From assembly GCF_000018785.1 (NCBI RefSeq), contig NC_010163.1, positions 330,001 to 362,000 on the forward strand: a stretch of 32,000 nt of DNA, read 5' to 3'. Within the stretch, counting starts at the first letter, position 1; every line of letters starts with the position of its first letter. The DNA comes from Acholeplasma laidlawii PG-8A. Lineage in GTDB: Bacteria > Bacillota_I > Bacilli_A > Acholeplasmatales > Acholeplasmataceae. The position numbers were made by a program, and so were the translations under genes. Of the stretch, positions 78 to 30,119 are shown piece after piece. The notes below the pieces were generated by a model. The model worked only from the letters and a program-made list of their open reading frames with translations. It did not search any database and was not told where the DNA came from.

Positions 78-425
78 ATGAGTATTAATGTCGATCGTTT
101 AGCTTCAAGAATCTTTAGAGAATTAGTTCATATCGTAAATGATGTGATTAAAAACACTCAAATTGGTTATATTACACTTACAGAAACTAAAGTCACTAAA
201 GATAAAAGTTACTGTTATGTTTACTACACCATCATTGATGATAGTGTAGAAGCCAAAAAGAAAGTTCAAGATCTTTTAGATGCAGGTAAAAAAGAAATTC
301 GTATGAAGTTAGCATCTAAAGTTAACGACATTCGAAAAATTCCTGATTTAGTCTTTAAATATGATGAAGCATTAGCTTATGGTAATCATATTGATAAATT
401 ACTTTCGGATATCAATAAAAATTAA
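78..425 (+). CDS. rbfA: ribosome-binding factor A
   Basis: The 115-aa ORF has a typical RbfA N-terminus (RLASRIFRELVHIVNDVIKN...IGYITLTETKVTKD) and typical size. It lies directly after infB. Confidence 0.9.
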   Translation: MSINVDRLASRIFRELVHIVNDVIKNTQIGYITLTETKVTKDKSYCYVYYTIIDDSVEAKKKVQDLLDAGKKEIRMKLASKVNDIRKIPDLVFKYDEALAYGNHIDKLLSDINKN

Positions 426-469: not shown

Positions 470-2455
470 TTATAGGACAGGATGATTTAATGTATAAGTT
501 TCTGTAACCACTTTAGTCTCACCATCAAATAATACGATACCACTCGATGAGAATGTATAAAAGATATTATTGATGTAGATACCTCTATCAATTTGATTGG
601 TATACTCGGTACTAGCGTGTGTGATGATATAAGGGTTTTGAATAATTGGTGATGTATTAAAATCTATATAAAATAGATAATATTGACTAGAGTATTCATA
701 ATAACCAAGGTCTTCATTAAATTCGCCAGTGTTTGCAGCAAACCCGATAAAACCGTGATCTGGTGAAACAAGAATAGCTTTATGGTTACTTAATGCTTCA
801 CTATAACTCCATCCGACATTTTCATCTGGATTGCTTAAAAGATAAGTTTCTAAAGGTGCGGTGGTATTCGTTGTATTGTATGCTGATATCTTCACATTAA
901 AGGTTTCATCATAACCAATACCTATGAGATGTGTTTCATCCCAAACATGTAAGTAAGTATTATATCCTGGTTCTTCAATCTCATTTAAAATCTTAATGTC
1001 TTTTGGATTACTAATATCTATGGTGTATAAAGGATCTATTTGTCTATAGGTTACAACATAGGCTAAATATTTATCAAAACGCACGGATGTTACACGCTCT
1101 TCTGGTTTACCAATACCTTCATCTAATAATCCGTAGTGTTCAAGTGTATCCTGTGTTTCATGTTCTTTTAATACATATAATCTATTTTTATCTGTTTGAC
1201 CCCATGAACGTGTTGTAACTACACGAAGTAATCCTTCATATTCATCTAGCCAAAATTGGTTTTCTATATAACCTTCTAATATAGTAGAACCACTATAGTT
1301 TACTTTGTGTGTATCACTATCAATTGAAAATTTAGTAATATGTGTGCCTGTTACCACAGTATTTAGTGTTGGGTAATATGTAAACATACCAGCGATGTAA
1401 AGACTTGTTTTAGTCATATAGATGTGGCCGTATACACCAACAACGGTTGTATGATCTAAAGTGAGTGTATCTAGATTTAAGGATGAAATGGTTGTCATAT
1501 TATATGCAGGAATTGCATCAAAGATTAAAATGTCTTCATACCCTACATAAGAGGTGTGAGTTTCTCCGTCCTTGTTTATAGTAAATTGTGGTCTAAGTTC
1601 ATCTTTTGAGATTCTGTTATAAGAAACCATATAAAGAGTGTCATCAATGATGCGGTGTGCTTGAATATCACCAATGGTCTTAAGTTCATAATCTAAAGAT
1701 AAATCTGTTCGATCATAAATACGCACAATGGAACTATATCTATACCCATAAAAATAACTGCTAGGTAAAATCAGTGCTGCATCATTAAATGCATAATATG
1801 TATCAAGGTTTTCTTCAAAATAACCTATAACAACAAGACTATCTGTAGTTAAATAAAATTCAGTAATGTAGACATCTAATAAATCAAGACCTTGTTTTTT
1901 AGTCAGACTACCATCTGGATTCACTTCATAACGGTAGAGTCTATTACTTTGATATCTTGGTGTATAAAAAATCTCATAACCATCTGTTTTAATAATGTCT
2001 GCTTCATCTACACCTAATACTTGTAGGTTTGTACCTACAACATCAGGTGCTTTGGCACCAGGGTTTGCTTCTTGGTCGACGGCGTCTTCACCAATAACCC
2101 AGTTTCCTGGAAAGAAGTCATACAAACTAAATCCATCACCAGCATCTATTTTATTTCTTAAGGTATGCTCATTTCGAACAATTCTAGCATTTAATAATGT
2201 TTTATCATGGTATGTTTGAGGTAAATCAAAGGTGCCTGTAATAATAAACACACCAAGTATAACCATCAATGTTAGACCAATAAGACCTCGTCTAACCGGT
2301 CTTACAATATTTTGTTGTCTAACATGTGTAATGTGGTGTTTATCTTGATAATTTTTTAGTCTTTGGTTCCACTTATATTCATAAATAGATCGTAAGATTA
2401 AAAACGAAATAATGAGTCCAACTATAATAGTCGCTATAACTCCATATGTGTTCAT
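470..2455 (-). CDS. membrane-anchored extracellular beta-propeller domain protein (PF09826-like)
   Basis: 661-aa ORF. It has two N-terminal hydrophobic segments (aa ~5-24 and ~57-76) separated by a K/R/H-rich loop. The remainder carries motifs I recognise from the secreted bacterial/archaeal beta-propeller family (GTNLQVLGVDEADIIKTDGYEIFY; DPLYTIDISNPKDIKILNEIEEPGYNTYLHVW). A GGAGG RBS lies inside the end of the upstream gene, with a 3-nt gap to the LytTR stop. Confidence 0.65.
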   Translation of the reverse strand: MNTYGVIATIIVGLIISFLILRSIYEYKWNQRLKNYQDKHHITHVRQQNIVRPVRRGLIGLTLMVILGVFIITGTFDLPQTYHDKTLLNARIVRNEHTLRNKIDAGDGFSLYDFFPGNWVIGEDAVDQEANPGAKAPDVVGTNLQVLGVDEADIIKTDGYEIFYTPRYQSNRLYRYEVNPDGSLTKKQGLDLLDVYITEFYLTTDSLVVIGYFEENLDTYYAFNDAALILPSSYFYGYRYSSIVRIYDRTDLSLDYELKTIGDIQAHRIIDDTLYMVSYNRISKDELRPQFTINKDGETHTSYVGYEDILIFDAIPAYNMTTISSLNLDTLTLDHTTVVGVYGHIYMTKTSLYIAGMFTYYPTLNTVVTGTHITKFSIDSDTHKVNYSGSTILEGYIENQFWLDEYEGLLRVVTTRSWGQTDKNRLYVLKEHETQDTLEHYGLLDEGIGKPEERVTSVRFDKYLAYVVTYRQIDPLYTIDISNPKDIKILNEIEEPGYNTYLHVWDETHLIGIGYDETFNVKISAYNTTNTTAPLETYLLSNPDENVGWSYSEALSNHKAILVSPDHGFIGFAANTGEFNEDLGYYEYSSQYYLFYIDFNTSPIIQNPYIITHASTEYTNQIDRGIYINNIFYTFSSSGIVLFDGETKVVTETYTLNHPVL

Positions 2456-2458
2456 AGA

Positions 2459-2962
2459 TTAACCTCCTATGCCTAAGGCATCTTTAAAGGGTTTGACATA
2501 ACTACGACTAACATCAATTTTTAGTCCATTAACCAATTCTAATTCGAGTTTAGCATTTAGCTTTGGTCGTATATAAAGTATTTTTTCCAAGTTTACTAAA
2601 AAAGATTTTGCGATTCTAATAATTTGATAAGACTGAAGCAGTCCTTCTAATTGATATAACGGTTGATTAATATAGATTTTTCCTCTTTTAGTCGTATGAA
2701 CTATAATTTCTACACCAAAGGATTCTATATATATGATTTCTCTTATAAAAAGTTTGACCCAACCATCACTTGTCTCAAATATAAATGCTTGTCTACTAAT
2801 AGTAACCTTTCTTAAAATACTTTCTAGGACTTCAAGTGATGTATCATCAACTAATAAAGTAATTGAACCATCATCATGATTTGTGATGTCTAAACTAGAT
2901 GATTCTAGATCATCTGTTATAAGGCTCAAATCAGATTTATCAATTAAGACTTTAATCATCAT
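2459..2962 (-). CDS. stand-alone LytTR-domain DNA-binding protein (no receiver domain)
   Basis: 167-aa ORF. The C-terminal ~100 aa match the LytTR pattern (FIREIIYIESFG...IIVHT...YQLEGLL....IIRIAKSFLVNLEKI....LELVNGLKIDVSRSY). The N-terminal ~55 aa are acidic and far too short for a REC domain. Confidence 0.75.
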   Translation of the reverse strand: MMIKVLIDKSDLSLITDDLESSSLDITNHDDGSITLLVDDTSLEVLESILRKVTISRQAFIFETSDGWVKLFIREIIYIESFGVEIIVHTTKRGKIYINQPLYQLEGLLQSYQIIRIAKSFLVNLEKILYIRPKLNAKLELELVNGLKIDVSRSYVKPFKDALGIGG

Positions 2963-3020
2963 TATCTTCCCTTCATCTAGATTTTACAAAAACCTAGTTT
3001 AAAGTAGCAAGGTTTATCTT

Positions 3021-3051
3021 ATAAGTTACATGAATTTATAAATAACTTACA
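3021..3051. promoter_or_regulatory. candidate LytTR operator: two 10-bp repeats spaced 21 bp start to start
   Basis: ATAAGTTACA (3021-3030) and ATAACTTACA (3042-3051) match at 9 of 10 positions and are separated by an 11-bp spacer. They lie ~60-90 bp upstream of the LytTR gene start (2962, minus strand). The geometry resembles AgrA/ComE-type LytTR sites. Confidence 0.35.
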
Positions 3052-3174
3052 GTAGAACACTTTAGATGTATTTTACCACTCAACTGTATAAACCTAGCTA
3101 AACAGTGTTAAAAACACTTAAAAACTGTAAAAATGCGCATAGAAATGATATAATTTATTATGGTAGGTGACTAG

Positions 3175-5439
3175 ATGATTGCTCGCGTGATTGTGGATAT
3201 AAAACATCAAAGTGTGAATCAAACATTTGATTATTTAGTTCACGAAAAAGATCAACTTCATATTCAAAAAGGTATGCGTGTAATTGTACCTTTTACAGAT
3301 AATAATATATTACGTTTAGGTTTTGTCTATGATATTATAAGTGCATCTGATTTAGCACATAAGTATGTTCATGAAATATTAGACATTGAACCTATTTTTA
3401 ATGATGAATTATTTTTAATGATGGATAAACTGATAGAAGACCCAAATGCACTCATTGCAGAAGCCTTTGAAACCGTGATACCTAAACAATTATTAATTCA
3501 TTATGAGAAAAAGGCTACTTTGTTAGAACCTAAACAACTACCGGATGATTTAGTGCCGTTTTTCAAACAAGGTGTTTGGACTTTGCTTAAAAAAGATGAA
3601 GTTTATTATAACCGTTTAAAAACATTAGAACAAAAAGGTATAGTTGAATTAAAAACCGTATTAAAGACAAGAAATAAGAAACCTTTAATAACCTATGTAA
3701 GAATCGATAACAGAAACTATCATGGTACACCAAAACAACACGAAGTACTAGATATTTTAAGTGCGCACTCACAAATGAAAAAAGCAGATCTCGTAGCAAA
3801 CTCTAGTGCATCGATTGTAAATACGTTAATCAAAAAAGCTGTTATTGAAGTATTTTATGAATCAGATAAGTTAGAAGTAGCTAATTTTAACAAAACAACA
3901 AAACTACCTGTGATTAATGAAGATTTAAAAGACCAAATCAAAGATATGATGGATGCAAAACATCAAGTTTATGTGAGTCAGTATCAAGATACCAAGTTAG
4001 ACCCTTTCTTTTTCCATTTGATTCATGAAGTGATTTCACAGGGTAAGCAAGTGCTTATCATGGTGCCTGAAAACTTTATGATTGCTTCTGTTAAGTCATC
4101 ACTTGAAAAAGTCTTTAGGGAAGAACTTATTATTGGTTTAAATCGTGGTCAAACAGATAAACAAATGATGTTAAAGTACAGTGCAATTTTAGATAATGAA
4201 ACTAAAATTGTCGTCGGTGCACGTTCATCTGTATTTACAAGTTTTAGTGATCTAGGTTTAATCATCATAACGGATAGTAATAATCACAGTTACCGTGCAC
4301 ATGAAGGTATTTATTATCATGCATTAGAGATTGCTGAAATAAGAGCTAGATATCATGGTATACCACTTTATTTAAGTGCGAGTTCAATATCCTTAGATAA
4401 CTATGTTAAGATACAACAAAAAACACATGAGTTACTAAATCTACAAGAAGAAGTCTATAAATCCATTGAACTTATAGATATGAAAGAAGAACTAAAAAAA
4501 GGAAATACCAAATTAGTTAGTCTAAGTTTAAATGATGCCATACTAAATACATTAGATCAAAATAAAAAAGTATTATTAATATTAAACCAAAAAGGGTATG
4601 CACCCTTTGTAATGTGTAGGACATGTTCGCATGTACCTGTAGATCCAGAAACTGGAATCCCTTTAAGATTTGATGAAAAACAAAATATTTTAAAATCTAA
4701 TTTGACAAAATATCAACTGGAGTTTACTAAAACATGCCCTGTATGCGGTAAACATACAGTGAAGTCTGTAGGTAGTGGTATTGATCAACTTATAACTTAC
4801 TTACATAAAGCATATCCTACGAAAGAGATATTAAAAGTCGATAGTGAGGCTATTAGTAATAAGACTTATCATGATAAAATTGAAGATCTTAGTCAAATCG
4901 ATATCATTGTAGGTACACAGATGGCACTGAAATCTAATTTAGAAGATAAAATAGATTTAGTGGGTATTTTGATGATTGATCAGTGGTTAAAATTACCCAA
5001 ATTTGATGCCTATGAAGCAACTTATGAACTACTTAGCCAAGCAAAATTTATCACTAAAGATAAACTGATTATTCAAAGTTATGATCCAACACATTTTGTT
5101 TTAAAAAGCATTATAGGTGATGGAAGTACATATTATAAAGAAGAACTAAGTCGTAGAAGACTTTCTAAATTACCACCATATTATCAAGTGCTACAACTAC
5201 GCATTGAAGGTATGAGTTATTTAAAGACTTTCCAATATGCACTCTCATTAAAAACTTCATTAGAAAAAATGGGACTTACTGTTTTAGGTCCAACCTCATC
5301 TGTATTACTAAAACAATTAGAAAATTATAGAGTTTTATTAACGATTAAATACCAAGGTAGTTTAAAAACGTTTAATCATTTACTAAAATCTAACAAAGAC
5401 ATAAAATTATATATGAACCATGATTTATCATGGTATTAA
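3175..5439 (+). CDS. priA: primosomal protein N' (PriA) homolog with degenerate helicase motifs
   Basis: The 754-aa ORF is collinear with PriA: N-terminal 3'-DNA-binding-like region (VIVDIKHQSVNQTFDYLV...GMRVIVPF), QGKQVLIMVPE (motif Ia), DIIVGTQMALKS, and a CxxC...CxxC insertion. It lies upstream of fmt, as in many Firmicutes. Confidence 0.8.
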   Translation: MIARVIVDIKHQSVNQTFDYLVHEKDQLHIQKGMRVIVPFTDNNILRLGFVYDIISASDLAHKYVHEILDIEPIFNDELFLMMDKLIEDPNALIAEAFETVIPKQLLIHYEKKATLLEPKQLPDDLVPFFKQGVWTLLKKDEVYYNRLKTLEQKGIVELKTVLKTRNKKPLITYVRIDNRNYHGTPKQHEVLDILSAHSQMKKADLVANSSASIVNTLIKKAVIEVFYESDKLEVANFNKTTKLPVINEDLKDQIKDMMDAKHQVYVSQYQDTKLDPFFFHLIHEVISQGKQVLIMVPENFMIASVKSSLEKVFREELIIGLNRGQTDKQMMLKYSAILDNETKIVVGARSSVFTSFSDLGLIIITDSNNHSYRAHEGIYYHALEIAEIRARYHGIPLYLSASSISLDNYVKIQQKTHELLNLQEEVYKSIELIDMKEELKKGNTKLVSLSLNDAILNTLDQNKKVLLILNQKGYAPFVMCRTCSHVPVDPETGIPLRFDEKQNILKSNLTKYQLEFTKTCPVCGKHTVKSVGSGIDQLITYLHKAYPTKEILKVDSEAISNKTYHDKIEDLSQIDIIVGTQMALKSNLEDKIDLVGILMIDQWLKLPKFDAYEATYELLSQAKFITKDKLIIQSYDPTHFVLKSIIGDGSTYYKEELSRRRLSKLPPYYQVLQLRIEGMSYLKTFQYALSLKTSLEKMGLTVLGPTSSVLLKQLENYRVLLTIKYQGSLKTFNHLLKSNKDIKLYMNHDLSWY

Positions 5440-5450
5440 AGGAGTAAATT

Positions 5451-6365
5451 ATGATTGTATTTATGGGTACCCCAGAGTTTTCAGTACCAATTCTAGAAAT
5501 GTTGATTGAAGAAAAATATCCGGTTGGGCTAGTTGTTACACAACCAGATAGATTTGTTGGTAGAAAAAAGATATTAACACCATCACCAGTTAAGTCGCTT
5601 GCTTTAGCACATAACATTGAGGTTTTTCAACCTGAAAAATTACGTCAGGATTATCAACACATCATTGATTTAAAGCCCAGCTTAATTATTACAGCAAGCT
5701 ATGGTCAAATACTTCCTAAAGCCCTTTTAGAAGCAATACCAGCAATTAACATTCATGGTTCATTATTACCTAAATACCGTGGTGGTGCACCCATTCAATA
5801 TGCATTATTTAATGGGGACGATAAAACCGGTATTACCTTAATGGAAATGGTCTATAAAATGGATGCCGGTGCTATGATTAAAAAGGTAGAAGTAGACATA
5901 GAACCTCTAGATGATTACGGCACTTTATCTAATAAGTTATCACTAGCAGGTAGAGATCTATTAAAAGAAAATCTAATGAGTGTTTTAAATAAAACGTATC
6001 AAAGCACACCGCAAAATGAGGATGAAGTGACGTTTGCATTTACACTTAAATATAGTGATGAAGCACTTGATTTTAACAAGTCAGCATCATGGAATCATAA
6101 CCGTATTAGAGGTTTAAGTCCTAACGTTGGTGCACATTTTAACATCAAAAACACTACGGTTAAGGTGTTTAAATCAGCAATAAGTGATATAATAGACATT
6201 CAAAGAGGTGAAATTCGTATAGAAAATAAAAGAATATTTATTGGTACGAGTGATAGAGCCATAGAGTTAATTGAATTACAACAATCAGGTAAAAAACAAA
6301 TGAAGGTTAAAGATTATTTAAATGGGCAAAGCCTATTTATTAACGGAGGAAAAATAGATGAGTAA
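5451..6365 (+). CDS. fmt: methionyl-tRNA formyltransferase
   Basis: The 304-aa ORF has the hallmarks MIVFMGTPEFSVPILEML, VVTQPDR..GR, INIHGSLLPKYRGGAPIQ. Confidence 0.93.
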   Translation: MIVFMGTPEFSVPILEMLIEEKYPVGLVVTQPDRFVGRKKILTPSPVKSLALAHNIEVFQPEKLRQDYQHIIDLKPSLIITASYGQILPKALLEAIPAINIHGSLLPKYRGGAPIQYALFNGDDKTGITLMEMVYKMDAGAMIKKVEVDIEPLDDYGTLSNKLSLAGRDLLKENLMSVLNKTYQSTPQNEDEVTFAFTLKYSDEALDFNKSASWNHNRIRGLSPNVGAHFNIKNTTVKVFKSAISDIIDIQRGEIRIENKRIFIGTSDRAIELIELQQSGKKQMKVKDYLNGQSLFINGGKIDE

Positions 6366-6936
6366 ACCGAAACTCTTATATAACCGAGATGAGATGTTAA
6401 AAATTAACATCGACACCTTGAAAAATAGATGTAATGTATCTGTTCTGGATATTGCAAAGATTGCACAGCAACAACAATCTAAATATTATCCTGGTATTGA
6501 TATTAACTTATGTGTGGAATCTGTAGAAAAAATATTAACATTTAGAGATGTTTTCCACCACATTCAATTTGCTGCAGAAGTTGATAGACTTGCTGAAGAA
6601 AAAATGTTTAAAGGACCAATACAAGATATTTTATTCTATGATCTTGGACTATTTGGTATTGATGAAACCATAGGTTTAGATGTTGCTAGAAACTATGGTG
6701 CGATTGGACAAACAAACTTTGGTGACATTGATGTCAATAAACATGGTATCGTTAAAAGATTAAATGATGCTGGTAAAACAGAAGGTATTGTACATACAAT
6801 GATGGATGATATTGTAGGTGCTATTGCTGCGGCTGCATCTACTCGTGTTGCTCAAGTGATGAACGAAGATATTGCACTTGAAAATCCAAGTTACCAAAAA
6901 ATTAGCTTATTTGATTTGAAAAAAAGGAAAAGATAA
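6358..6936 (+). CDS. phosphatidylglycerophosphatase A family protein (YutG/LtrC-like)
   Basis: The 192-aa ORF resembles B. subtilis YutG-type PgpA proteins (GIDETIGLDVARNYGAIGQTNFG.IDV.K.GI.K.LND......VHTMMDDIVGAIAAAASTRVAQ). It overlaps the fmt stop by 8 nt. Confidence 0.6.
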   Translation: MSKPKLLYNRDEMLKINIDTLKNRCNVSVLDIAKIAQQQQSKYYPGIDINLCVESVEKILTFRDVFHHIQFAAEVDRLAEEKMFKGPIQDILFYDLGLFGIDETIGLDVARNYGAIGQTNFGDIDVNKHGIVKRLNDAGKTEGIVHTMMDDIVGAIAAAASTRVAQVMNEDIALENPSYQKISLFDLKKRKR

Positions 6937-6939
6937 TAT

Positions 6940-8259
6940 ATGGGCTTAAAGAACCAAAAGCATAGGTTAAAGGGCTTTGGAAAAAAGCTGTTTTCTAAAT
7001 ATTTTGGTTTTGAAACTGGAATTGATATTGCTAATGACGTAGCTGTTTTATATAGACGAAATGTAGTTATTAAAAACATCGTATTTATATCAAACTTGCT
7101 TTATTCTTTAGTATTTTTCATTCTAGGCTTTAGTGTTGCCAATCCGACAACCGATTGGATTTTTGCTATTGCTGCTCTACCAATTACGTATACAGTAGGT
7201 AGACTACAATCTAAGCTTATCGACTTAGACCACAATGATTTAACAAAACAACAGATTGCGATGTATGTATCTAGTTTTTGGATTTTTATATCATCTGTGA
7301 TGGTTTATATCCGTGTTTATGCAGTCGGACAAAATGCGCCGTTTGAAACAGCAAGTTATGTATTAATATTTTATGCTTTAGTTCAAATATCGCTTTATCA
7401 AGACAAAAGGTTACTAGCAAACTCATTTGTTTCATTAGTTGGGTTTGTTACATTAATACATATATCAATAACTTATAATTTCTTTAATTTAGGTCTTACT
7501 TGGCAAGAGTTCTTATCAACGATATTTACCGATCCAGTACTAGCCATTCAAGTAGCTGACTTAGCCTTAAGAACAGTTATATTTATATTATTTTATTTAA
7601 TCAATTATATTATTGTTTCTATTGGACAATCCATCCAAGAAGAAAGAAAAAAGGAATTAAACAAACGCCGTGAAGTACAAATGGACTTCACGCATATCGT
7701 TAGATCTTTATTTAACGTTGTATTTCAATCTGCAAGCACCATATTAAACGAAAGACATGCCTATAATGTTGCATCAGTTGCATCAAAAATAGCTACATTT
7801 TATCACTTGGATGAACAAGATAAAATTGAGTTAGAAAAATACGCACTGATTCATTTAAGATTTGATGAAATCAAGGATTTAATGATAGAAACAGATAGTT
7901 ACGATGAACATACCTATGAAGTATTAAAAGAAAAGACAGATTTAGGTGCAAAAATTGGTAAAAGAATTCAACTTGCTCAAAAATCTAATGATATTATTAG
8001 AGCACATTATGAAAGAAGTGCTGATGAAGCATTTGCTCAACAAATGAATAAAATCCAATTTGAGATACCAAATCAAATTATCTTACTGGCGGATTGCTAT
8101 GTTTCTTTAAGAAGTTTATCAACATACTATCATCCAAACAGCCACCCACAAACGATGGACTTGTTTAAGAAACAATTAACACCATATTTTGATTATTCAT
8201 TAAGAGAAACATTCTTTAAATACAACACAGAAATTGATCAACTTTATCATGATTTATAA
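6940..8259 (+). CDS. polytopic membrane protein with a C-terminal degenerate HD-GYP-like domain
   Basis: 439-aa ORF. It has about six hydrophobic segments in aa 40-230. The cytoplasmic C-terminus aligns by eye to the HD-GYP layout (ERHAYNVASVASKIA.., YALIHLRFDE, AHYERSADE, ILLADCYVSLRS). Confidence 0.5.
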   Translation: MGLKNQKHRLKGFGKKLFSKYFGFETGIDIANDVAVLYRRNVVIKNIVFISNLLYSLVFFILGFSVANPTTDWIFAIAALPITYTVGRLQSKLIDLDHNDLTKQQIAMYVSSFWIFISSVMVYIRVYAVGQNAPFETASYVLIFYALVQISLYQDKRLLANSFVSLVGFVTLIHISITYNFFNLGLTWQEFLSTIFTDPVLAIQVADLALRTVIFILFYLINYIIVSIGQSIQEERKKELNKRREVQMDFTHIVRSLFNVVFQSASTILNERHAYNVASVASKIATFYHLDEQDKIELEKYALIHLRFDEIKDLMIETDSYDEHTYEVLKEKTDLGAKIGKRIQLAQKSNDIIRAHYERSADEAFAQQMNKIQFEIPNQIILLADCYVSLRSLSTYYHPNSHPQTMDLFKKQLTPYFDYSLRETFFKYNTEIDQLYHDL

Positions 8260-23052: not shown

Positions 23053-25539
23053 ATGAAAAAATTAATATTACTGTTTTTATTGATGCCTATTTTAACTTCG
23101 TGTGAAATAGGCAAACCATTGATAGAGTTTGAATCTAATGGAGCGAATCACATCTCACCTATAGAATTTTTAGGTATAGAAAACCTACCTAGTCCAGAAA
23201 AGGAAGGACATACCTTTGAAGGCTGGTATTTGGATAACGGTTTAACGAATAAACTTATAGATGATGAACAAATCATTTCGAACACAAAGGTATACGCAAA
23301 ATGGATTGTTAACCAATACAACATCGAATTTGAAGTAGATGGTGGTATTGAAATCGATCCACTTACAAATGATTTTGGTGCAGATATTACAAATTTACCT
23401 TCACCTGAAAAAGAAGGGTATAGTTTTGATGGTTGGTATTTAGAAAGTAACTTAGCTACTTTATTTGAAAGTGATACAATGCCTTCTAAAAACATCGTAC
23501 TTTACGCAAAATGGAATATAAATAACTATGATATCAATTATTATTATGAAGGTGAACTATTAAGTAGTTTTACAGTGCCTTTTAATCAGATAGTTTTAGG
23601 AGAACATGCGTATGAAGCACCTAAAATTGAAGGTTATACATTTTTATCATGGAGTGTAGAACTACCAACACTTATGCCCGCTCATGACATTAGTATTGAT
23701 GCGATTTATGAAATTAACACCTATCAAGTCACTTACATAGACTATAATGGTGACATCTTATTAGAACTTGAAGTTGATTACAATTCAACAGCAGCATTAC
23801 CTGATGTACCAAATAATCAAGAAGGTTATCATTTTGTCAAATGGGATAAGACCAATGAAAAGATTTCATCAAATGTAACAATTAAAGCCGTTTATGAGAT
23901 AAATATATATGAAGTAACTATTTTAGACTACGATCAAACCTATCTTGGATCAGAGTCTATTGAACATGGTTCTATTTTCACAACAAGTATATTACCTCAA
24001 AACTATCCAGGGAAACTCTTTTTTGGATGGGATATAGGAACCGATATTATCACATCTGATCTTACAGTTGTTGCTGAATATAGTGATATCATTCATATTT
24101 CTTTTGAAGTAGATGGTGGATTAGAATTAGAAAATATACAAATACCAAAAGGTAAACCACTGAGTGTTGAACCAGTTACTTCCAAAATAGATTATTATTT
24201 TGTTAGTTGGTATCTAGATTCTGAATTTATTGAAATTTATTATCATGATCATATATTTACTTCAGATGCTACACTTTATGCAAAATATAGTGAAACAGCA
24301 CCAGAAGAAATAGTTATCATGCATGATAAATTAAATGAAGTAGATCCATTTCATCCATTTTATACAGCACCTGATAAAATGGAGCGACAAAAGGTTATTA
24401 AAGAAGTTGAAATAAGATTAAATGTTAAGGTTATATTTAAAGCATATCACGAACAAGCAGCTTATGGTAGAGACCGTATAAATAGTATTAAAAATAGTGC
24501 TATTGCAGGGGTTTTGATGGCTGATATATTATCAATTAACTCTGACTGGACAGTAGAACTTGTTAAAGCAGGTGCAATCGATCCTGTAGACAGATATATA
24601 ATGTTTTCTGGTGATTCAAAAATTTCTGAAAATTCCAAAATTTTAGGTATGTATAATGGCAGAATCTATACATTTACTGAAAACGAACCTACTGTAGACA
24701 AAGGTTTATTCTTCAATTTAGATTTATTGAGATCATTAGGTCTTGAAAACCCGGCTGAACTATTTAATCAAAACGGGTGGACTTGGTCGAACTTTGAAGC
24801 ATGGGCAACATCTGCTAAAACAGCTTTAGAAAGTTTAGGCAAAGAGTATAAGGTACTAGGTGGTAATCGTGCTTTATATGCTGAAAGCATAATTCCTTTA
24901 AATGGCAGTTCCTTAATTAACTATCGAAACGAAAGGGTTGAATTCCACTATGCAATTGCTGGAGAAACATATAGTTTCCTTCATGAATTGCATAAAAAAG
25001 GATTATTTGAAAACTCAGGAAGATATGATGCAGGTTCTCCTTTATGGTTATCTGGTAAAGTACTGATACATCCTGGTGAGTTATCTTTCTTAGATGCTTC
25101 AAATAGATGGAAGCATATTTCATTTGATTTAGGTTATGTGCCTTATCCAAGTAGTGATAATTATTTTGGAACATATCAATCAGCGATAAGTAATAAAGAT
25201 GTGTATGCTGTATCTACTAGTCAAAATGCTTATAAACAGGAACTCGCATTCAAAGTCTGGAATGAAATTCAAACTTGGAAAACAAAAGAAGATCAAATAA
25301 ATGACCTAAGCACTTTCTTACAAAATAGAATGAATGATGAAGCTTCAGTCTCAGCATATCTATCTATATATAATCAAATAACTATAGATCCAATAAACAG
25401 TCTAGGTATATTAAAAACCTCTAATTATAGTTGGTATACCGCTGCAAACCTGGCCATCATAAATGGCAATTGGAGGGATCAAATGGATATTATAAGACCA
25501 AGTTATGAAGATGCAGTTGAAACTTATTACGGATACTAA
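23053..25539 (+). CDS. surface lipoprotein: six Listeria/Bacteroides-type (Flg_new-like) repeats fused to a family-1-like solute-binding domain
   Basis: 828-aa ORF. The signal peptide has a lipobox (MKKLILLFLLMPILTS-C17). Repeats with the G(Y/H)xFxGWY...(V/L)YAKW signature follow. The C-terminal ~415 aa resemble sugar-type ABC substrate-binding proteins (NGWTWSNFEAWA, KVLGG, LGYVPYP). Confidence 0.75.
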   Translation: MKKLILLFLLMPILTSCEIGKPLIEFESNGANHISPIEFLGIENLPSPEKEGHTFEGWYLDNGLTNKLIDDEQIISNTKVYAKWIVNQYNIEFEVDGGIEIDPLTNDFGADITNLPSPEKEGYSFDGWYLESNLATLFESDTMPSKNIVLYAKWNINNYDINYYYEGELLSSFTVPFNQIVLGEHAYEAPKIEGYTFLSWSVELPTLMPAHDISIDAIYEINTYQVTYIDYNGDILLELEVDYNSTAALPDVPNNQEGYHFVKWDKTNEKISSNVTIKAVYEINIYEVTILDYDQTYLGSESIEHGSIFTTSILPQNYPGKLFFGWDIGTDIITSDLTVVAEYSDIIHISFEVDGGLELENIQIPKGKPLSVEPVTSKIDYYFVSWYLDSEFIEIYYHDHIFTSDATLYAKYSETAPEEIVIMHDKLNEVDPFHPFYTAPDKMERQKVIKEVEIRLNVKVIFKAYHEQAAYGRDRINSIKNSAIAGVLMADILSINSDWTVELVKAGAIDPVDRYIMFSGDSKISENSKILGMYNGRIYTFTENEPTVDKGLFFNLDLLRSLGLENPAELFNQNGWTWSNFEAWATSAKTALESLGKEYKVLGGNRALYAESIIPLNGSSLINYRNERVEFHYAIAGETYSFLHELHKKGLFENSGRYDAGSPLWLSGKVLIHPGELSFLDASNRWKHISFDLGYVPYPSSDNYFGTYQSAISNKDVYAVSTSQNAYKQELAFKVWNEIQTWKTKEDQINDLSTFLQNRMNDEASVSAYLSIYNQITIDPINSLGILKTSNYSWYTAANLAIINGNWRDQMDIIRPSYEDAVETYYGY
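23104..24288 (+). repeat. six tandem ~62-70-aa protein repeats (diverged at DNA level) within the lipoprotein gene
   Basis: Repeat units span aa 18-84, 85-154, 155-219, 220-281, 282-343 and 344-412. Each ends in an aromatic (Y/W) after a hydrophobic strand and contains the EG(H/Y)xFxxW core. Units 1 and 2 share NLPSPEKEG(H/Y).F.GWYL. Confidence 0.7.
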
Positions 25540-27290: not shown

Positions 27291-30119
27291 ATGTTAGAAC
27301 TAAGAAATATTGGAAAAACCTACGCTACCAAAAAGGGTGTTAGCGTTAAGGCTTTAGATAATGTCAGTGTCGTCTTTGGTAAGACTGGACTGGTTTTTGT
27401 CACAGGAAAATCCGGATCGGGTAAATCAACGCTCCTTAATTTAATTGGCGGACTAGACACTTATGATACTGGGGATATGATTATTAATCAAAAATCCAGT
27501 CAAGATTTTAAACAAAAGGATTTTGATTCCTATAGAAATACGATGGTTGGATTTATATTCCAAGAATATAATATTCTAGAAGAGTTTAGTGTTGCTCAAA
27601 ATATCGGTTTAGCACTTGCACTGCAAGGTCAAAAAGTGAGTGATGAAGCAGTCAATGATTTACTAAAAAAATTAGATATTGAAGGTTTAGGCAATCGTAG
27701 TCCAAATGAATTATCTGGTGGACAAAAACAAAGAGTAGCCATTGCGCGTGCACTAGTTAAAAACCCTCAAATTATTTTGGCAGATGAACCAACTGGTGCA
27801 CTAGATAGTAACACCGGTATTCAGTTACTTGAAACTCTAAAATCATTATCTAAAGACAGATTAGTCATTGTAATTTCTCATGATTTAGAGTTTGCACGTA
27901 AATATGCAGACAGAATTGTGCATTTTGTAGATGGTAAGATTGCTTATGATATTACTTATACTGGAGAAGAAAGCCAAAGTGATGAACCAGTTAAGTTTAC
28001 GGATAAAGGCATTACGATTGAACCTAAATATCAATTAACGGCAGAAGATTTAAAAGTAATCAATGCGTACTTACAAAACCAAACCAAACCGACACACATA
28101 AAGAAGATAAGTGATCAAACGTATAGTGGGTTTAGTACAACAGATACATCAGATATAGAACAAAGTAGTGAACCATTTAAGTTAGTAAAATCCAAACTAC
28201 CATTTAAAGCATCACTTTCTATGTCTTTAAATGCTTTAATACATAAAAAAATAAGACTGGTTTTTACAATACTTCTTACAACCATTTCTTTAGTTATGTT
28301 TGGTAGTGTAGATACACTATCAAACTTTAATGCAGAAGATAAATCCTATGAAGTATTTGAAAAAAATAACTATAACTATTTGATGCTTAAAAACTATAAA
28401 CGTGGTGGTGATAGTAGTTGGTATTACTATACTGAAGTGAATTTAGATGAGGAAGTTTTTCAAAGTGCTTCAGATTTATATAGTAACTCCATACTTATAC
28501 CCGTATATCCACTAAGTCTTAGTTTGGATGCATACATTAAATATGATTGGAATAAACCTAGTTTTTATGATGCATATTATTATACAAGCTTCATTGAAAT
28601 TGATAATGAAACACTTCTAGGTACAAACTTTGAAGTCACTGGTAGATTACCACAAAACTTGAATGAAGTTGTTGTACCAATGCACTTTTATCAAAGTGTA
28701 GCGTATTACGGTTTTAATAAAGAAGATAGTGTTAAAGATATTAATGAGATGGACGATCTCATTGGCGAGATGCTGTATTTTAATGAAAGAAATATGAAGA
28801 TTGTAGGTATTATAGACTACAAAGATGATTTATCAGTCTATGAGGAACTTAAAGTATCTGGTTGGAATCAAGGTGTTGATACACCTCAAAATTACTATAA
28901 GTATGTAAATCGATTAAGAGAAGGAACACTGGGACTATTTATATTTGGTGAAGGTTACTATGAAAGTCTTAGACACGTTAAGAATTCTCGTGTAGAGGCA
29001 GTTTTTTATTTAGAAAATGAACGGATGCATCAATTTAGCACGGTAGCTAAAATAACGGATGTAGATGCCGAAACTATTAAATACTTTGATAGTGTAGATC
29101 CATTGAATTTAGGTGAGAATGATATTGTAATTAATGAATATCATTTGGGTAACATGATACATCGAGATTTAGGTGATTATCAGTATAATACAATCATCGT
29201 GGATTTTCTAGTAGAAACCTACTATGATGAACTAAATTTATTATTAGCAGAACACTTTCCGATGTATGAGACAGTAGATGATATTCCTGACGAGGATAGA
29301 ATTGCTATCATTGGTTATGAATTATATGGATACATATCTGATGCAGAAAGATATACTAAAGCATTCAATGCTGTGGTTGAATTCTATCTATCAACAAGTG
29401 AAGCGCCTAGTTTTCAAGTTGATTTTTTCAAAGATTATTACACAAACTACCCAATTATAGGACTTCGTGTTGTAGGATTTACTAGTGATGAGGATAATGT
29501 TTATGCATACCATGTAAGTAATGAACTTTATGACGAATTATATATTGAAGGTGAAATAATCTATAACTTTATTCTAGTAAGCACTAAAGATATGAAGCGT
29601 GAAGATTTTAATAAGATGGTTCAACAAAGTATGAATAAAGGTTTGTTATATAAGGTATCCTTACAAGATGAAAATATTGATTACATGATTATGCTTAGTG
29701 AAACTGTATATGGTATGCAACAATTCTTTTTCTGGACAGCTGTCATACTTGCAGGATTTGCAGCACTCTTGATGTTTACCTTTATTAGTTCTAGTGTGAG
29801 CCATAGTAAACAAGAAATTGGCATCTTACGTGCAATTGGTGCAAGTAGTAGAGATGTCTTAGGCATTTTCTCAAAAGAAACACTGATGATTTCTATTATG
29901 AATGCGGTATTAGGTGTGATTGGGACTGTTATTATAACAAAACTCTTGAATGATTCTATGATATATAATCTAAATCTAGGTACCACACTATTTGATGTTG
30001 GCATCAGACAAATCATATTAGTTACCTTAATTAGTATTGTTATAGGCTATCTATCCAGTGCATTACCAGTCTTAAAAACAGCATCTAAAAAACCAATTGA
30101 TGCGATCAAAAATAAATAA
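27291..30119 (+). CDS. fused ABC ATPase / FtsX-type permease (MacB-like) with a very large extracytoplasmic domain
   Basis: 942-aa ORF. The N-terminal LolD/MacB-type ATPase has GKSGSGKST, LSGGQKQRVAIARAL and ILADEPTGALD. TM1 lies at aa ~322-342, followed by a ~470-aa hydrophilic domain and then three C-terminal FtsX-type TMs (aa ~812-935, IGILRAIGAS motif). Confidence 0.85.
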   Translation: MLELRNIGKTYATKKGVSVKALDNVSVVFGKTGLVFVTGKSGSGKSTLLNLIGGLDTYDTGDMIINQKSSQDFKQKDFDSYRNTMVGFIFQEYNILEEFSVAQNIGLALALQGQKVSDEAVNDLLKKLDIEGLGNRSPNELSGGQKQRVAIARALVKNPQIILADEPTGALDSNTGIQLLETLKSLSKDRLVIVISHDLEFARKYADRIVHFVDGKIAYDITYTGEESQSDEPVKFTDKGITIEPKYQLTAEDLKVINAYLQNQTKPTHIKKISDQTYSGFSTTDTSDIEQSSEPFKLVKSKLPFKASLSMSLNALIHKKIRLVFTILLTTISLVMFGSVDTLSNFNAEDKSYEVFEKNNYNYLMLKNYKRGGDSSWYYYTEVNLDEEVFQSASDLYSNSILIPVYPLSLSLDAYIKYDWNKPSFYDAYYYTSFIEIDNETLLGTNFEVTGRLPQNLNEVVVPMHFYQSVAYYGFNKEDSVKDINEMDDLIGEMLYFNERNMKIVGIIDYKDDLSVYEELKVSGWNQGVDTPQNYYKYVNRLREGTLGLFIFGEGYYESLRHVKNSRVEAVFYLENERMHQFSTVAKITDVDAETIKYFDSVDPLNLGENDIVINEYHLGNMIHRDLGDYQYNTIIVDFLVETYYDELNLLLAEHFPMYETVDDIPDEDRIAIIGYELYGYISDAERYTKAFNAVVEFYLSTSEAPSFQVDFFKDYYTNYPIIGLRVVGFTSDEDNVYAYHVSNELYDELYIEGEIIYNFILVSTKDMKREDFNKMVQQSMNKGLLYKVSLQDENIDYMIMLSETVYGMQQFFFWTAVILAGFAALLMFTFISSSVSHSKQEIGILRAIGASSRDVLGIFSKETLMISIMNAVLGVIGTVIITKLLNDSMIYNLNLGTTLFDVGIRQIILVTLISIVIGYLSSALPVLKTASKKPIDAIKNK

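Follow-up and report, generated by a model that had tools for sequence, protein, structure and literature searches.

A receiver-less LytTR regulator paired with a hairpin-anchored beta-propeller protein in Acholeplasma laidlawii, a putative new type of LytTR Regulatory System

Few LytTR Regulatory Systems (LRS) have so far been studied in detail, and the membrane proteins in them are small, with no obvious sensor. Here we compare with these systems a two-gene module of Acholeplasma laidlawii PG-8A, in which the gene for a stand-alone LytTR regulator (gene 1) is followed directly by the gene for a membrane protein with a large beta-propeller of Pfam family PF09826 (gene 2); the window analysed is a stretch of 32,000 nt (NC_010163.1, positions 330,001-362,000), and all coordinates count from its start. 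LRS, put forward in 2018 as a class of bacterial signalling in their own right (PMC6193735), are defined by a LytTR regulator that lacks a receiver, a membrane inhibitor transcribed together with it, and direct repeats in the promoter (Zou et al., 2018, PMC6193735). The repeats are of 9-11 bp, lie 11-13 bp apart, end ~10 bp before the -35 element and mediate positive autoregulation (PMC6193735). Inhibition by the membrane protein has been shown genetically, with no physical sequestration shown, and no domain common to LRS membrane proteins and the anti-sigma factors of extracytoplasmic function (ECF) sigma factors was found, which was taken to point to independent origin (PMC6193735). The text of the 2018 catalogue has no entries from the Mollicutes (PMC6193735). 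We found no paper in the openly searchable literature on a pairing of LytTR with PF09826, or on PF09826 as the partner of a regulator, in agreement with the original prediction for this locus, which knew of no characterised LytTR/beta-propeller pairing. On balance, the evidence favours reading the module as a two-gene LRS of a previously undescribed type, a kinase-free switch with a propeller sensor.

The module resembles the LRS of Streptococcus mutans (HdrRM, BrsRM and three others) in having a receiver-less LytTR gene first and, immediately downstream, a co-transcribed gene for a membrane protein without a recognised enzymatic domain, in its direct repeats, which lie ~10 bp upstream of the -35 element and about two helical turns apart, and in a putative positive autoregulation from an off state. 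The analogy with HdrRM and BrsRM had been drawn in the original prediction and gains independent support from this promoter, which has the published LRS layout; the accompanying statement that the membrane protein sequesters the activator is too strong, since LRS inhibition is known from genetics and without physical sequestration (PMC6193735). The module differs from the S. mutans systems in its partner protein, which has neither DUF3021 nor DUF2154 but two transmembrane (TM) segments and a ~500-aa propeller predicted to be extracellular, in its operator half-site (TGYAWSTTATC as opposed to the common ACCACTTAC type), in the distinct folded N-terminal domain of its regulator, and in its host, a wall-less Acholeplasma relative. 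Because neither DUF is matched, the module is not an LRS of the S. mutans type and is at most a 'putative novel LRS'. The operons that Zou et al. called 'putative novel' or 'LRS-like' (SACOL_RS12395/12400 of S. aureus, lmo0984/0985 of L. monocytogenes and the NfeD-DUF2154 type of Bacteroides) have partners unrelated in sequence and keep the promoter design, and none is described with a large globular ectodomain or with a domain shared with anti-sigma-like proteins (PMC6193735).

Two other kinds of system invite comparison. Like an ECF sigma/anti-sigma pair, the module has a small transcription factor gene directly before a membrane protein gene and, if the mechanism proposed below holds, a cytoplasmic part that holds the factor and an outer part that senses; at 19 Bacillota loci, too, a protein with a PF09826 ectodomain is encoded straight after an ECF sigma gene. 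Unlike such a pair, its factor is a LytTR protein without sigma-70 regions 2 and 4, and so not an ECF sigma factor, and the anchor of its partner is a hairpin of two TM segments instead of an N-terminal tail with one. PF09826 appears to be a domain shared by LRS and ECF partners, with its role on the sigma side read from context. With the LytTR response regulators (AgrA, ComE, LytR, BtsR) the module has in common the LytTR DNA-binding fold and direct-repeat operators, and it differs from them in having no receiver, kinase partner or phosphorylation step.

A check of the open reading frames (ORFs) finds both genes adjacent on the minus strand, gene 1 (167 aa) at 2459-2962, assigned by its ORF and by Pfam and NCBIfam matches, and gene 2 (661 aa) at 470-2455, assigned by its ORF, Pfam, hydropathy and AlphaFold. 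At their junction (ATAGGAGGTTAATCTATG), the stop codon TAA of gene 1 (2459-2461) is followed by 3 nt and then by the ATG of gene 2 (2453-2455), and the ribosome-binding site (RBS) of gene 2, GGAGG (2463-2467, minus strand), lies within the 3' end of gene 1, bearing out the tight coupling that had been proposed. The LytTR domain of gene 1 occupies residues 67-163 (2474-2764, minus strand; PF04397, E 9e-21) and is the sole notable Pfam match; the receiver domain PF00072 is absent from gene 1 and present in more distant 242-aa matches. In the AlphaFold model (overall predicted local distance difference test score, pLDDT, of 89.6) the LytTR fold, which superposes on PDB entry 3d6w and on AgrA with template-modelling scores (TM-scores) on the target of 0.83-0.88 (Foldseek), is preceded by an N-terminal domain of beta-alpha-beta-beta-alpha order (residues 1-57, 2792-2962, minus strand; pLDDT ~80-85), spanning residues 3-57 in the model. 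This domain is conserved among gene 1 homologues within the clade and is acidic, the first 60 residues having a net charge of -7. It has no significant match in the PDB by Foldseek, which returned LytTR matches and non-significant KH-like ones at E ~0.3, and it does not superpose on the ComE receiver, as alignments of gene 1 to full-length ComE fit poorly overall (root-mean-square deviation 11-12 Å). The N-terminus had been described as a short acidic segment rather than a receiver; its acidity and its non-receiver nature stand, and the 'short segment' gives way to a conserved domain of ~57 aa. A single-sequence search with residues 1-62 against 1.84 billion representatives yielded seven matches, four of them family members or fragments and three of them repetitive proteins that look spurious; at the sensitivity of such a search the N-domain is clade-restricted. 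A degenerate receiver is rejected on the absence of PF00072, the confident fold of the N-domain and its lack of superposition on the ComE receiver, and no histidine kinase gene is present in the 32-kb window. Gene 1 is not a two-component response regulator, having no receiver and, within the window, no kinase gene.

The match of gene 2 to PF09826 (E 1e-112) covers model positions 3-494 of 495 and scores 377.7 bits, where the gathering cut-off is 22.4, so that Pfam search confirms both of the domain assignments made originally, LytTR and PF09826. The propeller, all-beta in the AlphaFold model, spans residues 141-647 (515-2035, minus strand). No other Pfam family is matched even at E<=1 and NCBIfam gives nothing; by these searches gene 2 is without a kinase or other recognised enzymatic domain. 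Hydropathy places TM1 at about residues 5-23 (2387-2443), a cytoplasmic segment at residues 24-56 (2288-2386; net charge +6 plus 3 His) and TM2 at about residues 57-75 (2231-2287), all on the minus strand and ahead of a linker to the propeller. In the AlphaFold model (pLDDT 80.6) one helix covers residues 3-40 and another, corresponding to TM2, residues 51-72; residues 107-135 are disordered, and 149-655 form an all-beta region with ~40 strands by our own count. The topology originally read from the sequence (TM1, basic loop, TM2, propeller) is thus in agreement with hydropathy, loop charge and modelled helices. The N-terminus is predicted to lie outside because no positive charges precede TM1, and the placement of the propeller outside and the loop inside is fixed also by the nearest relatives of the LytTR-linked propellers, which are lipoprotein-anchored and come from related lineages. 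Within the cytoplasmic segment lies a conserved juxtamembrane motif, [DE]-x-[IL]-W-N-x-[KR]-L-x-x-[FY], of which residue L33 is invariant in an alignment of 18 hairpin sequences; as the TM1 helix is unbroken to residue 40, the motif projects past the membrane on the predicted cytoplasmic side. We propose this juxtamembrane segment as a candidate contact site for the regulator. The propeller has no sequence relatives in the PDB, its fold matching generic propellers (Foldseek; best TM-score 0.37, to sortilin), and a profile of the hairpin, searched against 5.8 billion proteins for other ectodomains, returned 4 short fragments alone.

The closest homologues of the pair come from Acholeplasma and Acholeplasmataceae genomes and metagenomes, and the association of the two genes was scanned from both sides. 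On the propeller side, the gene 2 homologue alignment gave 80 propeller loci at one genome per species. In seven of them (L001, L003-L007 and L019) the ORF abutting the propeller gene on its upstream side is a LytTR ORF, and these are exactly the loci in which the propeller protein starts with the two-TM hairpin (L002, truncated, was left out of this count). On the regulator side, where the gene 1 homologue alignment was run against metagenome contigs, a hairpin-propeller gene directly follows the regulator gene at all 18 loci with a close relative (L081-L098; in L098 the LytTR ORF lacks its 5' end). Co-occurrence across genomes, which the original prediction had named beforehand as its refutation test, is accordingly found from either direction, and the neighbourhood of the two genes is no accident. 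The same pair is present in A. granularum and two further genomes, the intergenic gap is between -4 and +13 nt (median 1, 24 pairs), and the pairing persists down to ~35-40% identity. In two relatives with a propeller identity of 54-61% the pair sits between rimP-nusA-ylxR-L7Ae-infB-rbfA and priA-fmt-pgpA, as in the window; A. granularum retains the priA side, and in distant lineages (Mariniplasma and others) the pair stands beside different genes. These comparisons indicate that the pair is an old resident of the rbfA/priA position in the Acholeplasma clade which in the long term moves as a two-gene unit. The LytTR/PF09826 pairing is confined to an Acholeplasmatales clade and is not a general rule; in other lineages the propeller comes after ECF sigma factors or archaeal HTH proteins or stands without a neighbouring regulator. 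A recent insertion or island is ruled out by the GC content of the module, which is the same as that of its surroundings (0.316-0.317), and by its syntenic position in relatives; the 'accessory insertion' of the original prediction does not survive.

Two observations on individual loci may be added. In A. granularum (L161) the stretch just past the module's 3' end, which in the window holds rbfA, contains an ISL3-family transposase fragment (7617-8120), and in L005, from a metagenome-assembled genome, the propeller gene is split into overlapping ORFs for the hairpin part (2829-3401) and the propeller part (3323-4993), either as a frameshift pseudogene or through an assembly error.

The anchor of the propeller protein varies with the kind of regulator encoded upstream. 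Among 55 same-strand ORFs directly upstream of propeller genes, Pfam identifies 19 ECF-type sigma factors (two were checked against NCBIfam, both scoring above its ECF superfamily cut-off), six LytTR proteins (seven with L005) and ~7 helix-turn-helix (HTH) proteins of ArsR or TrmB type. Across the 80 loci the two-TM hairpin is found solely in LytTR-linked propeller proteins: a LytTR gene accompanies it in seven of eight loci, the eighth (L023) being an over-called start codon. All 19 sigma-linked loci encode instead a cytoplasmic N-terminal tail with one TM segment, and none of the 41 propeller proteins with a signal peptide, lipoprotein or N-anchor form has a sigma or LytTR gene upstream; six of these 41 follow an HTH gene, all six archaeal. 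Fisher tests of anchor type against regulator type give p = 3e-9 and 8e-12. An anchor that tracks its regulator is the pattern expected if the cytoplasmic part contacts the regulator, and it is chiefly on this link, as drawn from sequence comparison, that we prefer a partnership to a plain operon of regulator and cargo.

The sigma-linked loci (L016, L017, L024-L026, L029, L030, L034, L037, L040, L043, L046, L052, L053, L058, L070, L077, L079 and L080) belong to the Bacillota, with the propeller gene near position 5500-6000 in most of them and often overlapping the ECF sigma gene, and the N-tails of their propeller proteins are ~25-50 aa long, longer in L034. No recognised anti-sigma domain was found by Pfam or NCBIfam in those of the sigma-linked propeller proteins that were checked, NCBIfam giving no name at all, and an anti-sigma role for them is for this reason itself suggested by context. 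In six archaeal loci (L036, L039, L050, L055, L057 and L068) the propeller protein, N-anchored and with a tail of very few residues, is encoded after a small HTH gene of ArsR or TrmB type, and one database match (P0106) has HTH domains and PF09826 within a single protein. In Inordinaticella fortuita (L022) a sigma-like ORF (4887-5384) is followed by a 119-aa ORF (5386-5745) and a lipoprotein-type propeller (5752-7551), and another propeller paralogue lies upstream (3064-4770). Membrane link and propeller may here be separate proteins, in a version made up of three parts.

The promoter of gene 1, on the minus strand, consists of a distal half-site (TGTAAGTTATT, 3041-3051), 10 nt, a proximal half-site (TGTAACTTATA, 3020-3030), 9 nt, a -35-like hexamer (TTGCTA, 3005-3010), 18 nt, a -10-like hexamer (TAAAAT, 2981-2986), the RBS (AAGGGAAG, 2966-2973) and the ATG, with the half-sites recognised as a paired repeat of 21-bp period; read as 9-mers it is GTAAGTTAT-12-GTAACTTAT-10-TTGCTA-18-TAAAAT. 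All 24 distinct upstream regions contain a pair resembling the half-site consensus TGYAWSTTATC, with a period of 20-21 bp and starting 85-96 nt ahead of the start codon; this test is partly circular, as the loci examined include some that supplied the consensus. In most related loci a CTTG-type -35 lies 8-9 nt beyond the repeats, followed by a -10. Independent controls for the consensus are provided by a consensus-free repeat test and a scan for specificity. The former finds significant direct repeats (19-22 bp period) in nine of the 24 upstream regions, where ~1 is expected, and eight of these nine start 78-91 nt before the start codon. In the latter, which covered 228 kb from 28 related loci on both strands and scored paired sites out of 22, the strong pairs (>=20/22) number 16, every one at the module's own promoter. 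The 32-kb window contains a single strong pair, at 3020-3051, and this paired-site scan gave no further targets of the regulator in the window or in the flanks of related loci. The confinement of strong pairs to these promoters, in the 228 kb and in the window, supports autoregulation, which is well supported by comparison, with the gene 1 protein as the presumed binder of the repeats.

A sister group from the human gut has a different ectodomain. In metagenome loci L099-L116 the LytTR protein, which belongs to the same clade, is 148 aa long, and the gene after it encodes a protein of 220-241 aa that begins with two TM segments and has a ~150-aa ectodomain without a Pfam match; these gut loci have the same operator and -35 spacing (in L114, TGCAACTTATC-9-TGCAGGTTATA-8-CTTGTC). 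When a profile of the propeller-group hairpin was compared with 4127 ORFs, the gut partners were the best matches outside the group, over TM1 and the juxtamembrane helix. The inner parts are thus kept and the ectodomain changed, as would suit an inner module that is conserved while its sensor can be exchanged. The gut arrangement is listed for L099-L109, L112-L114 and L116, in most of which the LytTR gene is at 3501-3947. LytTR ORFs of 439 and 384 aa are also seen (L116, 2454-3773; L118, 1260-2414), with either long N-terminal extensions or over-called starts.

From the domains, predicted topology, conserved pairing, operator and promoter geometry and anchor-regulator link described above, we infer DNA binding, a sign of regulation, inhibition by gene 2, contact surfaces and a signal, which could be combined as follows. 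The gene 1 protein would bind both direct repeats upstream of its own -35 and activate the operon, giving positive feedback, and gene 2 would be produced in step with gene 1 through the tight coupling of the genes. The gene 2 protein would sit in the membrane by its two-helix hairpin, with the basic loop of ~33 residues in the cytoplasm and the propeller of ~500 residues outside. At rest its cytoplasmic juxtamembrane helix would keep the regulator from acting. Once something happened to the propeller, be it ligand binding, damage or cleavage, the inhibition would be lifted, and the regulator would then turn on the operon together with any other targets.

Several observations weigh against this mechanism and must be set beside its support. 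The cytoplasmic segment of gene 2 is short (~33 aa), and DUF3021 and DUF2154, the domains of characterised LRS inhibitors, have no Pfam match in it at E<=1. The loop is basic in 22 of 22 pairs and the N-domain of the regulator acidic in 21 of 22 (the ORF of the remaining one is truncated), but the two charges do not correlate pairwise (rho -0.2, p 0.37; 22 pairs), and a basic cytoplasmic loop is predicted by the positive-inside rule anyway. The hairpin similarity of the gut group is weak (E 0.004-0.4), and the circularity of the consensus-based repeat test has been noted. Lipoprotein propeller paralogues in related lineages, finally, work without an adjacent regulator, so that a propeller can be a surface protein of the usual kind. 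This last point, along with the lack of covariation between loop and N-domain charges, would fit an operon in which the LytTR protein autoregulates via the repeats and the propeller is simply its controlled product (an adhesin, enzyme or binding protein on the surface of the wall-less cell) with no feedback, the regulator being driven by another input, perhaps through its own conserved N-domain, which could receive one. We consider this explanation somewhat unlikely, though the strongest of the rivals: it leaves unexplained why the LytTR-linked propellers alone have swapped a signal peptide for a two-TM hairpin that exposes the motif, why the sigma-linked propellers have a cytoplasmic N-tail (19 of 19), and why the gut group has kept a hairpin-type N-terminus with a changed ectodomain.

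The evidence from co-occurrence and anchor type backs a partnership of either sign, and it would suit a membrane co-activator, in which the engaged propeller causes the hairpin protein to recruit or activate the regulator and gene 2 is needed rather than restraining. This we regard as improbable, given that every characterised LRS membrane protein is an inhibitor (PMC6193735), that a regulator held at the membrane would need to reach its chromosomal operator, and that a positive feedback loop whose partner activates has no evident off-state at rest. Far less credible still, and disfavoured here, is that gene 1 is an orphan or decaying response regulator which has lost most of its receiver, with the adjacency of gene 2 incidental. 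Such a remnant is what the names alone would suggest, as source annotations call gene 1 homologues 'LytR/AlgR family response regulator' and the best NCBIfam matches are LytR and BtsR; these matches, however, cover the C-terminal LytTR part of the models alone, the N-domain is conserved, confidently folded and not superposable on the ComE receiver, the pairing is conserved to the identity level given above, and no histidine kinase gene is nearby. The kinase-free switch with inhibition by gene 2 is the reading we prefer over these three.

If the module is such a switch, its large and well-folded ectodomain offers a concrete handle for finding a ligand, in the form of a sensor domain that the known LRS lack, and its minimal cytoplasmic part (one juxtamembrane helix and the ~33-residue loop) narrows down where the regulator could be held. 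Because the system lives in wall-less relatives of Acholeplasma, damage to peptidoglycan is an unlikely signal. The occurrence of PF09826 after ECF sigma genes bears on the question of whether LRS and ECF systems are independent inventions or exchange sensor modules. It is possible, and we put it forward tentatively, that the PF09826 propeller is a portable extracytoplasmic sensor which has been joined to three unrelated transcription controls, namely ECF sigma factors, LytTR proteins and archaeal HTH proteins of ArsR/TrmB type. If this were true, a common signal and a common release mechanism would be implied, the Acholeplasma hairpin with its W-N-x-[KR]-L helix would be a new class of anti-LytTR factor, and the propeller would be the first sensory domain common to LRS and ECF systems, such a domain having been reported absent in 2018 (PMC6193735).

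In the window the module is flanked by rbfA (78-425, plus strand; Pfam), which is convergent with it, and by priA (3175-5439, plus strand; Pfam). Between rbfA and the 3' end of gene 2 lies a strong intrinsic terminator that can be read in both directions (431-468, both strands), with a 16-pair stem between A and T runs, so that one hairpin ends both convergent transcripts, that of rbfA and that of the LytTR-propeller operon. The window otherwise holds ordinary chromosomal genes (fmt, pgpA, metK, lemA, secA, a release factor gene, recX, ftsK, rnhB, topA and ABC transporters). A 439-aa multi-TM protein without a Pfam match at 1e-5 is encoded at 6940-8259 (plus strand), and an equally long Pfam-less gene, compared by length, follows pgpA in A. 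granularum and two relatives (L161, L163 and L165). Further downstream on the plus strand are a probable surface protein of 828 aa that has Listeria-Bacteroides repeats (23053-25539) and a 942-aa fusion of an ABC ATPase with an FtsX-type permease (27291-30119).

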